64,000 nucleotides of DNA, from positions 5,728,001-5,792,000 of the forward strand of contig CM000151.3 in assembly GCA_000004695.1 (NCBI GenBank), given 5' to 3'. Below the pieces are notes generated by a model that saw only the letters and a program-made list of their open reading frames with translations, did no database searches and was not told where the DNA came from. Each line of letters opens with the position of its first letter. Position 1 is the stretch's first letter. The position numbers and the translations under genes were made by a program. The stretch is from Dictyostelium discoideum (taxonomy: Eukaryota). Below, piece by piece: positions 3,969 through 52,631 of this stretch.

Positions 3969-5150
3969 ATGGTCATCAAAACTACAACCACTACTAAATC
4001 TGCCCCAACAAAATCATCAACTAAAACAGCAGCAACCACTCCAGTTGTTGAAGGTGCAACCACTCCAGTTGCTAAAATAGTTGTAAAGAAAACTACTGCA
4101 ACATCTGCATCAGCACCAACACCAGCAACCAAAGCAACAACAACTAAAAAAACCACTACCACAACTAAAGCAACAACAACTAAAGCTAAAGAAGCAGAAC
4201 CAGTTGAAGTTTATGAAGAAATGAAAAAGATGACACCAATTGAACCACCACACTCAATTAAAATTAATTATTTTAAGAAATCAATTTGTGCAAAGATTAC
4301 ACTTCATAAAATTCCAGATAAATTTATTAATTTACATCCAACCTCAACTAAATTCCATATTGATACATTAAAATATACAAAGAGATTCCTTTTAGATATT
4401 CCATATCCTGAAAATGTCGTTGTTGATGATGAAAAAGCAACTTGTACATTTGAACATGATATTTTAACAGTTTTCATTCCAATTATTTCTGAATTAAAAG
4501 AAAAAACCAATAGTAATAATAATAATAAAAATAACAATAAAAAAGTAAATAATAAAAGAAAACAACAAGAAGTTGAAGAAGAAGAAGAAGAAGAAGAAGA
4601 AAAAGTAGAAGAAAAACCAAAAAAAGTTATTAAAAAACAAAAAGTTTCAAATAAAACTGAAGAACAAAAAGAAAAAGTTGAAGAAGAAGAAAAAGTTGAG
4701 GAAGAAGAACAATCAGAAACTACCACTACCACTCAAAAGAAAAAGAAATTCATTAGCAATGATTCAACAATTGATATTATGAAACAAATTTCTGAAGAAC
4801 AAGAGAAAAAAGCTAATCAAAAAATTACTCAAGAAAAGAAAAAGACTCAACAATTACAATCTAAAGAAGTTGAAAAACAAACAAAGAAAAAGAATGTTGT
4901 AGAGAAAAAGAAAACAATTTTAAAGAAATTAAAAGGTGAAGAAGAACAAGAACAAGAAAAAGAAGAAGAGAAACCAGTTGTAGCTAAAACTACAACCACA
5001 ACTAAAAAATCTGTTTCAAAGAAACCAAAAACTCAAGTTGAACAACCATCAGAAGAACAAACTACCCCAAGTAAAAAATCAGTTTCATTTGGTGAAAAAG
5101 TTAATGTAAAACATATTCCAAAAGTTGGAAAAGGTAATAAATTAAATTAA
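3969..5150 (+). CDS. Protein of 393 aa. Thr/Lys-rich and Glu/Lys-rich low-complexity regions flank a compact domain that resembles an HSP20-like CS/p23/PIH1-type beta-sandwich. The domain assignment is tentative.
   Basis: Single continuous ORF from the track. The central segment IEPPHSIKINYFKKSICAKITLHKIPDKFINLHPTSTKFHIDTLKYTKRFLLDIPYPENVVVDDEKATCTFEHDILTVFIPI has the alternating hydrophobic pattern and the ...LTVxIP ending of CS domains. The rest is TTTK/EEEE/KK repeats. Confidence 0.6.
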   Translation: MVIKTTTTTKSAPTKSSTKTAATTPVVEGATTPVAKIVVKKTTATSASAPTPATKATTTKKTTTTTKATTTKAKEAEPVEVYEEMKKMTPIEPPHSIKINYFKKSICAKITLHKIPDKFINLHPTSTKFHIDTLKYTKRFLLDIPYPENVVVDDEKATCTFEHDILTVFIPIISELKEKTNSNNNNKNNNKKVNNKRKQQEVEEEEEEEEEKVEEKPKKVIKKQKVSNKTEEQKEKVEEEEKVEEEEQSETTTTTQKKKKFISNDSTIDIMKQISEEQEKKANQKITQEKKKTQQLQSKEVEKQTKKKNVVEKKKTILKKLKGEEEQEQEKEEEKPVVAKTTTTTKKSVSKKPKTQVEQPSEEQTTPSKKSVSFGEKVNVKHIPKVGKGNKLN

Positions 5151-5171
5151 ACAACAAATTTAACAAACTAG

Positions 5172-5224
<53 letters not shown>

Positions 5225-5603
5225 AAATAAACAATTTTTTAATTAAATATAATATTGAATATTTTAAAATATATATTTTTTTATTTATTTAATTTAAAAA
5301 TAATTTGGTAGTAATTAAGTAAGTCTTACCAAAACTCACATTAAATCTGGAAATAAAAATGGGTGCTATCTTTGACTATTTTAACTAATACCAAAGTTAC
5401 CTCTTTTTTTTTTAAAATAAAAAATAAAATAATATACAAATGAATCACCATTAGGAACTTAACTAAAAAATAAATATATAAATAAATAAATAATAAAAAA
5501 AAAGTTGATACATTATTTTAAAATCAAATCCCAAAAAATTTTTTTTTTTTTTTTGAATGGAAAAAATAATAAAAAAAAAAATAAAAAAAAATAAATTATT
5601 CAG

Positions 5604-5644
5604 GTTTATCAGAAAAAAAACCTGAATAATTTATTTTTTTTTTT
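5604..5644. repeat. Perfect hairpin (inverted repeat) with a stem of about 15 bp: taaattattcaggtt ... aacctgaataattta.
   Basis: Read directly from the sequence: ataaattattcaggtttatcagaaaaaaaacctgaataatttatt. It lies about 50 bp upstream of the ATG at 5694. Confidence 0.7.
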
Positions 5645-5693
5645 TTTTTTCTCATCAAATTTTTCACTCTCACATCTTATACACACAGACAAA

Positions 5694-6524
5694 ATGAAAA
5701 TTTTATTATTACTATTTTTAATAGTTTTATTAAATGTTTCTTTCACAATGGCTTGGGAAGAAAGTGGTGAAACATATTATCCAGTATACCCACCAGGCAG
5801 TAAAAAATGTCATAATGATTGCAATTATCAACCATATCTTTGTTACAATGGTATTTGTTCATGTCCTTATGGATACAATCTTAATCCATACGATTGCAGT
5901 GATAAATGTTATTATGCAGGTAAGATAATCTTTAATAATAATAAATAATAATAAATAATAATAAATAATAAATAATAATACTAATAGTAATAATTTAATA
6001 CTACTACTACTACTTTAGGTTGTACAAAATCTATAGATTCAATTAGTGATACCACTCTTAAAGGTGGACCAATTACTTTATTAGGATGGTTTGATAATGA
6101 TTATTCATCAATTTTTATCACTGTTGATGGTGTTAATTGTCCAATTTATTCAAATTCTTCAACAAGTGTAACTTGTTTAGCACCAAAAATCGGTGGTTCA
6201 ATGAACCCACATTTATATATAGTAGAAACTACATTCACTGATAGCAATAATAACACAATGATGGAAATATTTAAAACAGTTAGTTATAATTCCACAAATT
6301 GTTTAAATCAATGCTCAGGTGTTGGTTCATGTGATGAGAATGGAAATTGCAATTGTTTATCTGGTTACTCTGGTGAAGATTGTAGTATTATTCCATCACC
6401 AGCTCATTCATCCTCATCATCATCACCAACTGATAAAGGTTATTTTACAATTCAAATCACTCCATTTACTTTAATTTTATTATTCATTTTCATTTTAATT
6501 ACTATAATTACTTCAAAAAAATAA
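5694..6524 (+). CDS. Secreted or membrane-anchored Cys-rich protein with an N-terminal signal peptide, an IPT/TIG-like module, an EGF-like module and a C-terminal hydrophobic tail (GPI or TM). Exons are 5694..5919 and 6019..6524.
   Basis: The signal peptide is MKILLLLFLIVLLNVSFTMA. Exon 1 ends ...DKCYYAG at a GTAAGA donor (5920). The intron ends ...TACTTTAG (6018). The joined frame gives ...AG|CTKSIDSISDTTLKGGPITLLGWFDNDYSSIFITVDGVNCPIYSNSSTSVTCLAPK..., which is IPT/TIG-like. The EGF-like stretch is CLNQCSGVGSCDENGNCNCLSGYSGEDC. The hydrophobic C-terminus is ITPFTLILLFIFILITIITSKK. Phase was checked as 226 nt plus 1. Confidence 0.7.
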
Positions 6525-7109
6525 AATAAAAAAAGTAGAATCAAACAAACAAACAAAAAAACAAACAAACAATCAAACACTTATGTAACATATTTAATAA
6601 TAATAAATAATAAATAATAAATAATAATATTAATAATAATAATAATAATAATATCTATTTATTATATTACAACAATTTATTTATTTTGTATTTTAATGAA
6701 TATAATTTAATTTATTAAAACAACCCTTTTTAAGTTTCATTTGATATTAATTGTGATTTATTAAATTGTAATTTTAATTGATTATATTTTGATAGTACCT
6801 ATTCTACAATTTGGATCAATATTTATAAAAAATTATTTGAATATCTCAATTTTTGAAATTTAAAATAAAAAAAAAAAAAAAAAAAAAAGGTGAGGATAAA
6901 ATATAAAAAATAATAAAAAGAATAAAAAAATAATAAAATAAATAATTGAATCAAAATCTCCATCATCACCATCATTAGGAACTTCACTAAATTAAACTGA
7001 TTTTAAAAAATAAGTATCTTAGTTTTAAAGTAAATAAAGTTTTAATTAATTAATTAATAAATTAATAAATTTTAAATTAATTACTTTTGTTAAAAAAATA
7101 AATAAATAA

Positions 7110-7144
<35 letters not shown>

Positions 7145-7204
7145 TTTGGTGATCGTCATCATAAAATCAAATCTCAATTTTTTTTTTTTTCTTCAAGTTT
7201 TTTT

Positions 7205-7346
7205 CCTGATAAAATTTCCTTTTTTTTTTTTTTTCTTTTCTCATCAATTTTTCACTCTCACATCTTATACACACACACACACAGACAAAATGAAAATTTT
7301 ATTATTACTATTTTTAACAGTTTTATTAAATGTTTCTTCAAGATAA
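7205..7346 (+). pseudogene. Duplicated copy of the promoter, 5'UTR and signal-peptide start of the 5694 gene. It is truncated after 17 codons (MKILLLLFLTVLLNVSSR*).
   Basis: Positions 7225-7340 are almost identical to 5645-5750 (ctcatcaa(a)tttttcactctcacatcttatacaca...gacaaaatgaaaattttattattactatttttaa[c/t]agttttattaaatgtttct). The copy has an expanded (CA)n and a stop after the signal peptide. No downstream exon is present. Confidence 0.6.
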
Positions 7347-7438
7347 TCTTATTCACCAATTTCTATCAATATTGTTGTTAATTGCCCAATTTATTTATTT
7401 ATTTATTTATTTATTTTATTTTAATGAATGCAATTTTA

Positions 7439-8097
7439 TTAAAACCACCTTTTTGACATTTTATCAATAGTTTTGGGAGATTTGTCAATATTCGCATCTA
7501 TTGAATCGAATTTTTTATCCATATTTTTCATTTGTTCAGTTTGAGAATGTAATGTATTTGAAAGATCTGTTGCTAAAGTTGTCATTGATGATATTTCTTG
7601 TCTAGCTGATTGAATCATTTTTGTGTTATTATCCATCATTTTATTAAGATTTAATATTTTTTCTCTTGTTTCATTTGTGGATGAGTTGAAATTTGTTGAT
7701 TGATTATTACTATTATTATTAAAAGTTTCATTTGATATTAATTGAGATTTATTAAATTGTAATTTTAATTGATCATATTTTGATAGTACAACTCTACAAT
7801 TTGGATCATTATTTATATTATTATTTATATTATTATTATTATATTCTAATTTCAATAATGATATATCATTTTCTACATTTTCAAATAATTTTTTAATTTT
7901 CTCTTTATTATTACAATTGTTTTTTAATTCATTTTCAATATTTGAAAGTGTTTCATTAATTTCTTCAATATAGGAATTTAGAATATAACTCTTTTAAAAA
8001 AAAATGAAAAATAAAAAATAAAAATAAAAATATTAGTATTAATATTATGGATTAAAATAATAATTAGAATAATAATAATAATAAAAAATTATACCAT
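7439..8097 (-). CDS. Asn-rich coiled-coil protein of about 184 aa whose C-terminal heptads resemble a Q-SNARE motif. No TM segment was found. Exons are 8095..8097 (ATG only) and 7439..7990.
   Basis: The track ORF 7439..7855 starts at a TTG. Its frame continues open upstream as SYILNSYIEEINETLSNIENELKNNCNNKEKIKKLFENVENDISLLKLEYNNNN... to an ...TTTTAAAAG acceptor (7991/7992). The nearest upstream in-phase start is ATG|GTATAAT at 8095-8097, a phase-0 donor. The C-terminus is ...IQSARQEISSMTTLATDLSNTLHSQTEQMKNMDKKFDSIDANIDKSPKTIDKMSKRWF. The one-codon first exon is an inference. Confidence 0.45.
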
Positions 8098-8112
8098 TAA
8101 TAAATTTGTTTG

Positions 8113-8150
<38 letters not shown>

Positions 8151-8588
8151 TATGGTAGTTAATTAATTATTTTAAAAAGATGGTTTTATAAAAGATATTG
8201 ATTGATCATTAATATATTATTTTGAATAGTTTGGTTTATAAATTAAATTAAAATTAAAATTAAAATAAAAAAAAAAAAAAAAAATTAATAAAACAGGTGT
8301 TCTGTAACACCCGCTGTAAAATTGAAAAAAATTCAGTGAAAAATAAAAAAAATAAAAAAAAATAAAATAAATTAAAAAAAATAAAATAAAATTGAAAAAA
8401 AAAAAAAATTTAAAAATTATTTTTTAAATATTTCGACTTATTACACAAACACACGCCTATAATTCATTATTTATTATTCCACCTTTTTTTTTTTTTTATT
8501 AATTAATAACCTATATAAAAATAACACACATATAACAATACACATATAATACACGTATAATACACTTTTTTTTTAAAAAAAAAAACAA

Positions 8589-8760
8589 ATGGAAATCGAT
8601 AACCAAAATATAAATAATATAAATAATAATAATATACACAATAATATAAATAATAATAATATAAATAAAAGGAATATAGAGAATAATATAAATAATATAA
8701 ATAATATAAATAATAATATATCAATGAAGAATAAAAATAATAATATCGACAATAAAAAAA

Positions 8761-8806
<46 letters not shown>

Positions 8807-9692
8807 TAGCATAAGTAATAATAATAATAATAATAATAAATCATTTGGATTATATTCATTAGAACAACCAGCACCATTACCTTTATGGTTATTAGTTATA
8901 GTATTTGGTGTTTCAATTTCAGTTATAGTATTTTTATTTTTAAATTTTCCAAGTTTATCTCCTCAACACAAACAATTAATTCGTTTACCTAAAAACTTTA
9001 AAGATGTTAAATTATTAAGTGATATTTTATCTCAGTATACTGATGATAATTATTTTATTGTAATTACTACTTTTGGTGTTATTTATACATTGTAAGTAAA
9101 AAAGAAAAAGAAAAAAAAGATTTTATTTTTTTAAATGTTATATTAATTTATTTATTTATTTATTTATTTTTTTTTATTATTTATTAATAGTTTACAAGCA
9201 TTTTCAATACCAGGATCAGTATTTTTAAGTTTTTTATCAGGTGGATTATTTGGATTAAAAGTTGGATTTCCATTAGTTTGCTTTGTAGCAACATTAGGTG
9301 CAACATTTTCCTATTTAATATCATATTATATTGGAAGAAATTTAGTAAGAAAGTTATTTCCAGATAAATTAAAGTTATTTTCAGATTCACTATCGCAAAA
9401 ACGTGATAATTTATTAAATTATATCGTTTTCTTGCGTATTACACCATTCTTACCAAATTGGTTCATAAATTTAGCATCTCCATTGTTGGATGTTCCAATT
9501 CATACATTTGCCATTGGCACCTTTATTGGAATTATGCCAGCCACCTTTTTGGCTGTAAAAGCTGGAATTCAAATCCAAAACATTCAAAATCCTTCCGATA
9601 TTTTCGATTTAAAATCAATTTTAACAATGGCAGCTTTAGCTTTATTATCTATTTTACCAACTTTAATTCAAAAAAAGTTAAAAGTTAATTAA
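8589..9692 (+). CDS. TVP38/TMEM41/TMEM64/DedA (VTT-domain) family multi-pass membrane protein with an N-terminal Asn-rich extension. Exons are 8589..9091 and 9191..9692.
   Basis: Exon 1 ends ...ITTFGVIYT + TT at a GTAAGT donor (9092). The acceptor is ...TTATTAATAG (9190). Joined, the protein reads ...IYTFLQAFSIPGSVFLSFLSGGLFGLKVGFPLVCFVATLGATFSYLISYYIGRNLVRKLFPDKL...NYIVFLRITPFLPNWFINLASPLLDVPIHTFAIGTFIGIMPATFLAVKAGIQ... This matches the DedA/Tvp38 core: a G-rich reentrant loop followed by LR(I/L)xPxxP. Phase was checked as 503 nt equals 167 codons plus 2. Confidence 0.8.
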
Positions 9693-11373: not shown

Positions 11374-16830
<5,457 letters not shown>

Positions 16831-26545: not shown

Positions 26546-26873
26546 CAAAAACAAATCTTTACCACAATCTACACTTTTTTTTTTTTTTTTTAAACACCTT
26601 GATATTAATTATTTTACTTACCATTTTTTTTTTTTTTTTTTTTTAAAATAATTGTAGTGGTAGAAACTTAGAACAGGACTCAAAGTAAAATCGATTTAAT
26701 AATAAAATAAAAAATTATTAAAAAAAAAATAAAGAAGTTTAGATTTTTAAATTCAAATAATTATTTTATTCAATGATATTTTTATTATTATTATTATTTA
26801 AATATTATTATTATTTAAATATTATTATTATTTTTTTAAATAATTATTTATTTATTTATTTAAATTTAATTAC

Positions 26874-51105: not shown

Positions 51106-51840
51106 AATAAATTGGCCTCTCAAAAAATACAACAAACTTCTTTTTTATTTTTTTTTTTTTATTTTTTTTTTATTAACCCAAAATAAACATTCCTTTACCA
51201 AGTTTTTTTTCAATTTCTCTAGTTTTTTTTTTTCTTTTTCAATTTTTTTTAAAATTTTTTTTTTTATTTCAACAAAAATGGAAACCTATCAAAGTATACC
51301 CTTGGTATGTCGTCAACTTAAATTCTTTATCTTTAAAAATTGTTTTTTTTTTTTTTTTTTTTTTTTTTTGTTTTTTAAAAAAATAAAAATAGAAGATGTT
51401 CAATAATTTTTAAAAATAAAAGTTTAAACACAATAAAATTCATTTAAAAATAAAAAAAGAAATAAAAATAAAAAAATAAAAAAAAAATAAAAAAAAACAA
51501 TAATAAAAAAAAAAAATATATTTGTATTAAAAAAAAAAAAAAAAAAAAAAGATTATTCATATATTTAAAATACTTTAATTAATGTTTTAATATATTAAAA
51601 AAAAAGGGAAAAGAACTTAATGCATGAATAAAATTTTTTTTTTTTCTAAACACTTTTTTTTTTTAATTTTATTTTCTTTTTATATTTTATATTTATTTTT
51701 TACTTTAATTTTATTATTAATATTTTAATTATTTTTTTAAAAAATTAATTATAAATTAATTTAGTTTCAAAATATTCAATTTATACCTATTATTTATTTT
51801 TAATAGTTATATTGGATTATTAATATTAATATTATTTTTA

Positions 51841-52326: not shown

Positions 52327-52631
52327 ATAATAATAATAATAATAAAAATAATAATAATAAAAATAAATAAAAAGATTTTACTATTTTTTTTTTTTTTGAA
52401 AATGGGTTAAAATTGAAATTGATAATATCCAAAACTTAAACTCAATATTTATTTGAACAATCCATAAAATTAAATAAATTTTAAAAAATTATAATATTTA
52501 TTGGTTTTTATTAATTATTTTAAATAAAAAAAAAAAAAATTAGGAAAAATAAAATAAAGATAATTGAAAATAAAATATTTTAATTAGTAGAATAAATTTT
52601 TAATTATTATTTATTGTTATTATTATTATTA

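Follow-up and report, generated by a model that had tools for sequence, protein, structure and literature searches.

Probable tandem duplication of a convergent gene pair in Dictyostelium discoideum, with relics of a surface-protein gene and a SNARE-motif gene in adjacent units

The window analysed here is a stretch of 64,000 nucleotides (64 kb) from chromosome 2 of Dictyostelium discoideum AX4, with about 20% G+C across the sequence. Between positions 5438 and 8097 it contains two adjacent units, A and B, and each of them has one intact gene together with the remains of the other. Unit A has an intact gene for a small surface protein (XP_643496.1) on the plus strand, followed by pieces of a SNARE-motif gene. 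Unit B has pieces of the surface-protein gene, followed by the intact SNARE-motif gene DDB_G0275765 on the minus strand. The best explanation of this arrangement is a tandem duplication with one breakpoint inside the SNARE-motif gene and subsequent pseudogenisation, by which each gene has become single-copy again; we consider this explanation, breakpoint included, to be probable. Both intact genes are already annotated, while the relics and their history appear to be undescribed. The features of the locus, in window coordinates, are the following.

5438-5693, plus strand: upstream region and 5′ untranslated region (5′UTR) of unit A, with collinear similarity to 6947-7289; presumed promoter.
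5630-5693, plus strand: well-conserved proximal part of the unit A upstream region, with (CA)3 at 5682-5687.
5694-6524, plus strand: intact surface-protein gene, 243 amino acids, exact spliced match to XP_643496.1 (UniProt Q553C4).
6674-6735, minus strand: relic, copy of the tail-to-tail intergenic sequence with the last codons and the stop codon of the SNARE-motif gene; aligns to 7400-7465 (0/500 shuffles).
6732-6827, minus strand: relic of SNARE coding sequence, approximately codons 59-90 of DDB_G0275765 (BLASTN E 1.5e-35 against 7723-7817).
6828-6946, no strand: junction between the units, with 41 nucleotides of undetectable origin, poly(A) at about 6865-6888 and then A-rich sequence.
6947-7289, plus strand: upstream region and 5′UTR of unit B; 7099-7190 corresponds to 5460-5551 and 7220-7338 to 5630-5742; (CA)7 at 7270-7283.
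7290-7438, plus strand: surface-gene relic of unit B, with signal-peptide codons 1-16, a stop, a 58-nucleotide exon-2 fragment and a remnant of 3′ intergenic sequence.
7439-8097, minus strand: intact DDB_G0275765 (UniProt Q553C3), 184 amino acids, exact spliced translation match.

The repeats were found by BLASTN of 5300-8600 against the whole window with the DUST filter on, and smaller pieces were scored against dinucleotide shuffles (300 or 500 per test). The strongest match joins 5630-5742 to 7220-7338 (E 3e-37), with 90% identity in an alignment of 121 columns that contains the CA indel, and the next one joins 6732-6827 to 7723-7817 with 93.75% identity over 96 columns (E 1.5e-35). The ungapped cores have 61/62, 23/23 and about 64-65/66-67 identities. 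An earlier note on this DNA had described repeated blocks of about 100 bp in these two places, and precisely both were recovered; with such E-values under the filter, the similarity is not limited to A/T runs. Further upstream, 5460-5551 has a weaker match to 7099-7190 (76%, E 1.6e-5), and the piece containing CATTAGGAACTT at 5438-5478 corresponds to 6947-7000 (1/500 shuffles reached the score). Further downstream, 7342-7395 corresponds to 58 nucleotides of exon 2 at 6092-6150 (48/58 identities), and 7400-7465, which includes the tail-to-tail spacer and the SNARE stop codon, to 6674-6740; for both of these pieces 0/500 shuffles reached the score. All pieces of units A and B are in collinear order. 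The similarity of the relic to its neighbouring parent thus spans the upstream region, 5′UTR and 3′ spacer, as is usual for a pseudogene derived by duplication.

In unit B, the ATG at 7290 opens a reading frame, MKILLLLFLTVLLNVSSR*, which ends after 18 codons at the stop 7344-7346. Signal-peptide codons 1-16 occupy 7290-7338. The earlier note correctly saw that unit B shares the promoter, 5′UTR and signal-peptide codons of unit A and then runs into a stop, and that the CA run in front of the ATG is expanded, with (CA)7 in unit B against (CA)3 in unit A. Its statement that the remainder of the gene is deleted is accurate for the larger part. Two deletions relative to unit A, one of about 350 bp (5743-6091) and one of about 520 bp (6151-6673), have removed most of it, but a piece of exon 2 and the 3′ intergenic sequence are kept. 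A global alignment had placed the start of the intron (5921-5930) at 7339-7348; this assignment was rejected because local alignment gives one contiguous exon-2 piece at 7342-7395, which is simpler.

The SNARE relic of unit A is damaged in a different way. Its stop-codon region lies at 6711-6735, and a 1-nucleotide insertion disrupts the frame of the 6674-6735 piece. A deletion of about 260 bp, equivalent to 7466-7722, fuses a 95-nucleotide internal block to this 3′-end relic. The block has a 1-nucleotide insertion and lacks a start codon, and a stop lies where the two pieces join. The proposal that 6730-6830 copies part of the minus-strand coding sequence is thus borne out by the match of 6732-6827 to 7723-7817. 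When unit A beyond 6827 was compared with the 5′ 280 bp, the intron and the upstream region of the SNARE gene, no similarity could be detected (204/500 and 273/300 shuffles reached the score). The filler at 6828-6868 was compared on both strands with the upstream region of unit A, with the deleted SNARE segment and with the SNARE 5′ part plus its upstream sequence, and no significant match was found. Between 6889-6946 and sequence in front of unit A (5151-5445) there is a weak similarity (3/300 shuffles reached the score). The SNARE copy in unit A may therefore not have decayed from a complete gene at all: a duplication breakpoint within the gene may have left it incomplete from the outset, in which case the fragment would mark the right-hand breakpoint. 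As far as the sequence allows us to judge, the relics of both genes are most likely non-functional.

The locus was compared with related assemblies. The second D. discoideum assembly (L005, GCA_054883475.1) is an independent long-read assembly and probably represents AX2-214 of PMC12745789. L001 (GCA_054859355.1), which also carries the label D. discoideum, is more divergent: it is collinear with the window at 89-95% nucleotide identity and probably represents one of the candidate cryptic species in PMC12745789. At the syntenic site, D. citrinum (two assemblies, L002 and L003) and D. dimigraforme served as outgroups. The structure in L005 is identical to that in AX4, and the differences over 5150-8200 consist of three changes in poly(A) length and one single-nucleotide polymorphism (SNP). 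Since an independent assembly has the same structure, the arrangement is not an assembly artefact.

Both D. citrinum assemblies and D. dimigraforme have one unit, in which the surface gene on the plus strand lies tail-to-tail with the SNARE-like gene on the minus strand. The order in these outgroups is cytochrome c, a gene for 1310 amino acids, a gene for 400 amino acids, the unit, the VTT-domain gene and a gene for 1668 amino acids. The window segment 6533-7426 has no counterpart in the D. citrinum and D. dimigraforme loci. As the outgroups have a single unit, the ancestral state was one convergent gene pair, and the duplication is specific to the discoideum clade. The single pair between the same flanks also agrees with the earlier proposal of two ancestral genes, of which each duplicate has kept a different one.

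The divergent assembly L001 has three units. Unit 1 consists of a complete surface gene followed by a SNARE relic of the AX4 type, with both junctions shared; the piece corresponding to 6674-6735 has the identical sequence and junction. Unit 2 (11466-12292 in L001) is an intact, spliceable B-type paralogue of 245 amino acids and is without an intact counterpart in AX4. Unit 3 (12526-12860) is a badly degraded relic of the promoter and signal peptide in which codon 5 is a stop; small remnants of exon 2 and of the 3′UTR are left, and the intact SNARE gene lies next to it. Within this third relic region a long (AAT)n expansion follows at about 12740-12855. The two-unit history of the earlier note describes AX4 well, but it does not cover L001, where there are three units and one relic has decayed separately.

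The relic in AX4 unit B shares the variant 'tttC tatca' and the signal-peptide codon variant 'aaCag' with the intact paralogue in L001 unit 2. The presence of this intact B-type paralogue indicates that the loss of copy B in AX4 is recent and lineage-specific. The AX4 unit B relic and L001 unit 3 each keep pieces which are missing from the other, so their decay was at least partly independent. The common ancestor of AX4 and L001 would have had a more complete, probably intact, B-type gene beside the SNARE gene.

How old is the duplication? For the surface gene, AX4 and its L001 orthologue have a synonymous divergence (dS) of 0.07; paralogues of the A type and the B type differ by 0.12-0.16, and comparison with D. 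citrinum gives 0.45-0.5. In the 95-nucleotide SNARE block, columns 412, 414, 471 and 482 join the relics with the SNARE genes of the discoideum clade against the outgroups, while columns 408 and 480 and an extra C join the AX4 and L001 relics to each other. From the dS values and these shared derived sites it follows that the duplication took place after the split from D. citrinum, and that the SNARE relic had already taken its current shape when AX4 and L001 separated. The two genes differ in constraint. The ratio of nonsynonymous to synonymous rates (omega) is about 0.15 for the SNARE-like gene across four genomes, whereas the surface gene is fast-evolving, its orthologues giving 0.55-0.8 and its paralogues about 1.0-1.3. 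Such rates fit a dispensable or diversifying protein, of which an extra copy could easily be lost.

These observations suggest the following course of events. The ancestor would have had a single convergent pair, a surface TIG/EGF-like gene on the plus strand and a SNARE-motif gene on the minus strand. Once the lineage had parted from D. citrinum and D. dimigraforme, a tandem duplication of about 1.5-2 kb would have extended from about 250 bp upstream of the surface gene into the 3′ part of the SNARE gene. With the right breakpoint probably inside the SNARE gene, the left unit would have received a promoterless 3′ fragment, and the SNARE fragment of the right unit would have stayed joined to the original 5′ part as a whole gene, leaving the surface gene as the only one truly present in two copies. 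A further loss of about 260 bp in the SNARE fragment would have preceded the separation of AX4 and L001. The B-type surface gene presumably diverged quickly, and it is still intact in L001. In the lineage of AX4 and AX2, two deletions would have destroyed the B-type copy, leaving the upstream region, the 5′UTR, 16 codons, the 58-nucleotide scrap and the 3′ spacer, and the CA microsatellite in the 5′UTR of the relic would have gained four units. In the L001 lineage, either an additional duplication of the B unit occurred, or a three-unit state was kept there and was cut down in AX4 by unequal crossing-over.

Several points weigh against this history. The step which places the breakpoint inside the SNARE gene leans on undetectable similarity in about 60 nucleotides of very AT-rich sequence, and later deletions of a once-complete SNARE copy would leave the same picture. 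AX4 unit B may be the orthologue of unit 2 or of unit 3 in L001, or of a recombinant between these; the diagnostic sites are few and evenly split, two being shared with each. Finally, a block of 112 nucleotides covering the promoter and signal peptide is 97% identical between the units, a degree of preservation which the remainder of the unit B relic does not reach, yet this is compatible with a recent loss. About four neutral changes would be expected in this block since the split of AX4 and L001 (dS 0.07 in total), and three substitutions plus indels are seen. Gene conversion was considered as a cause of the high identity and set aside as unnecessary: the block is conserved to the same degree in all orthologues and paralogues, and the count of changes fits a recent loss. 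The signal-peptide identities among the copies are 48/49, 48/49 and 46/47.

Another possible, though doubtful, course is that a complete two-gene unit was duplicated, including the full SNARE gene and its promoter, and that a different gene was then lost from each unit by deletions. The two separate SNARE pieces in unit A require at least one deletion there in any case, and deletions are frequent at this locus: AX4 unit B has undergone two, and L001 unit 3 several. However, unit A showed no remnant, in AX4 or in L001, of the SNARE gene's first 280 bp at the 5′ end, of its intron and ATG exon or of its upstream region, and a full duplication costs at least one more deletion than a partial one, with its end exactly at the unit boundary. 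The same evidence bears on the reciprocal decay of two duplicated genes proposed in the earlier note. Each unit does keep one intact gene, and the L001 paralogue confirms that the surface gene was doubled, but the 5′ part of the SNARE gene was not detected in unit A.

A three-unit ancestor has to be weighed as well. Here AX4 unit B would be an unequal-crossover recombinant of units 2 and 3, and the intact B-type gene would have been removed in one step. A simple crossover of units like those of the present day fails to yield AX4 unit B, and the diagnostic sites are very few. The exon-2 sequence gttaattgcccaatttatt of AX4 unit B is missing from L001 unit 3, and AX4 unit B in its turn is without the ...atccaatagaaatcact piece and the 3′UTR piece, both of which L001 unit 3 has kept. 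These differences make the recombinant unlikely, in spite of the mixed affinities of AX4 unit B. It has 'aaCag' and a longer stretch of exon 2 in common with L001 unit 2; with L001 unit 3 it has in common 'caAtAtt', the promoter piece 'ctcatcaa/cccatcaa' and, at 94%, the 3′ spacer.

It is very unlikely that the promoter, 5′UTR and signal-peptide module of unit B has been preserved by selection, either for a convergent antisense transcript over the SNARE-like gene or for a peptide of 18 residues. Such selection could account for the identity of about 97% which the 112-nucleotide block retains to its functional twin when the coding sequence behind it is almost gone, and the module does point toward the 3′ end of DDB_G0275765, whose stop codon is about 100 bp downstream. 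The number of changes, however, is close to the neutral expectation given above, and the signal-peptide sequence evolves slowly in every copy and species. The equivalent in L001 unit 3 is far more degraded (stop at codon 5, 76-85% identity), and the independent annotation of L005 calls no gene over the relic. That the stranded module is still active and has acquired a role in regulating DDB_G0275765 by antisense transcription, or in supplying the hydrophobic 18-residue peptide, would be a surprising outcome, and we give it very little credence; the antisense reading is suggested by the geometry of the locus. Chance similarity between AT-rich low-complexity sequences, or an assembly artefact, can be dismissed: although the region is about 80% A+T and has many spurious A/T repeat families, the main matches reach E 1e-35 to 1e-37 with the low-complexity filter and the smaller pieces 0/500 shuffles, the structure is identical in the independent long-read assembly, and L001 has orthologous relics.

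Partial tandem duplication followed by decay would place the locus among tandem unprocessed pseudogenes. Partial duplicates of genes can be created at duplication breakpoints, and in C. elegans and other eukaryotes surveys of young duplicates have found many partial or chimeric copies. As in such pseudogenes, the copy here is local and head-to-tail and takes in intron sequence as well as non-coding flanks; each gene has one copy which deletions, a frameshift or a stop have disabled, and a fragment lies at the edge of the segment. Nothing essential differs, except that the relics come from two different convergent genes, so that the locus looks reciprocal, and that an intact second copy in the sister lineage dates the loss. 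Reciprocal gene loss, or divergent resolution, is a concept from studies of whole-genome duplication in yeasts, fish and plants. Here too alternative copies have been lost and the genes are back to single copy at different positions. In the classical case, however, populations or species lose different copies of one gene, whereas here two genes in adjacent units of one genome are concerned, and the likeness is superficial because duplication of the full SNARE gene is undemonstrated.

The locus is a new instance of a familiar process of ordinary genome turnover, and its importance is limited, and it opens up neither a new mechanism nor a long-standing question. It offers a clean, datable and small example of how a tandem duplication arises and is pruned in the AT-rich Dictyostelium genome. 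Both a gene-body relic and a probable breakpoint fragment survive, and the paralogue in the sister lineage shows that the lost copy was once whole. For annotation, 6674-6827 and 7290-7438 should be treated as pseudogene fragments and not as genes. A literature search on the gene identifiers found no paper.

In the surface-protein gene, the intron at 5920-6018 separates exon 1 (5694-5919) from exon 2 (6019-6524), and the gene product XP_643496.1 is annotated as "EGF-like domain-containing protein". The architecture is a signal peptide, a Cys-rich part, a TIG-like domain, EGF-like modules and a C-terminal hydrophobic anchor. All Pfam matches are below threshold: EGF_Teneurin with 22.6 bits against 24.3, TIG with 18.4 against 20.9 and EGF_2 with 18.8 against 22.1. 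The predicted AlphaFold model has low confidence, with a mean predicted local distance difference test score (pLDDT) of 55 and values of 60-79 over residues 90-200. In this low-confidence model residues 81-165 form a beta-sandwich, for which Foldseek gave weak matches to the IPT domains of MET, plexin, EBF and CAMTA (E 1e-3 to 1e-2, root-mean-square deviation about 3.3 Å, about 90-95 columns); these predicted fold matches are suggestive. The protein is probably membrane-anchored and not freely secreted, because its hydrophobic C-terminal stretch, ILLFIFIL.TIITSKK, is invariant. A protein search with XP_643496.1 found syntenic relatives only, with orthologues in three further genomes. The second homologue search, with the L001 B-type paralogue as query, added no proteins, the paralogue itself being outside the searched set.

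Two automatic gene models deposited for this protein, ACTFIW_004843 (231 amino acids; locus L001 9947-10795) and ACTFIT_003969 (225 amino acids; locus L005 9562-10338), begin at an internal Met and omit the signal peptide. A conserved ATG at L001 9947, 54 nucleotides upstream of the modelled start, gives a protein of 249 amino acids. Short matches of 32-42 nucleotides with 83-88% identity to the signal-peptide-coding sequence atgaaaattttattattactattttt occur in the window at 26772-26813, 51707-51741 and 52331-52362, and they probably belong to other secreted-protein genes with similar leaders.

The protein resembles the cell-surface TIG/IPT families of Dictyostelium tgr genes, which turn over rapidly (PMC12745789), in its signal peptide, putative Ig-like TIG-type domain and probable membrane anchor, and also in its fast evolution (omega 0.55-1.3 here), lineage-specific tandem gain and loss and pseudogene relics. 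It differs in being far smaller, with 243 amino acids, one TIG-like domain and EGF-like modules, and in having four or five detectable homologues, all of them syntenic orthologues or paralogues. No relationship to Tgr proteins was found in word-seeded database searches of limited sensitivity. The locus therefore draws attention to a small, fast-evolving TIG/EGF-like surface protein whose copy number varies between close relatives.

DDB_G0275765 adjoins a gene with the VTT/SNARE-associated domain and is annotated as "t-SNARE coiled-coil homology domain-containing protein". The earlier note had taken 7439-7990 as an intact coiled-coil gene. It is indeed intact and corresponds exactly to DDB_G0275765, but a one-codon exon 1 (ATG) at 8095-8097 and the intron at 7991-8094 had been overlooked, 7439-7990 being exon 2, and the gene carries a SNARE motif. 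Pfam PF12352 (V-SNARE_C) matches residues 121-182 with 31.1 bits against the cut-off of 27.1. A C-terminal membrane anchor after the motif is typical of SNAREs, though not universal. DDB_G0275765 is without such an anchor and ends ...KMSKRWF two residues past the motif in all five genomes. In one D. citrinum assembly the SNARE-like gene has an expansion of an asparagine run by about 25 codons, so that exon 2 encodes 209 residues against 184.

The unit A promoter contains at 5590-5635 a perfect inverted repeat of 18 bp, aataaattattcaggttt / aaacctgaataatttatt, with a predicted hairpin of -17.9 kcal/mol. The loop of this hairpin is the reverse complement of the 'ttttttttctgataaa' element, which unit B (7196-7212) and units 1 and 3 of L001 carry in the forward orientation. 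The inverted repeat has the appearance of a micro-inversion produced by template switching in the AX4/AX2 lineage only, about 60-100 nucleotides upstream of the ATG of the surviving gene. Upstream of unit A there is also an intergenic island (5290-5400) which is comparatively G+C-rich and non-repetitive and is well conserved in L001. It has no counterpart in the intergenic region of about 145 bp in D. citrinum and D. dimigraforme, no Rfam match and no further copy in the window. An Rfam scan of 4500-9000 (E<=1) returned zero matches.

Among the small differences between the assemblies, the poly(A) tracts at 5172, 6869 and 7115 differ between AX4 and L005 by 16, 4 and 8 A, the single SNP is C/A at 5224, and the CA microsatellites are equal. 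The two D. citrinum assemblies, compared over L003 8940-9701 and L002 8971-9665, have dS of about 0.07 from each other, equal to that between AX4 and L001.

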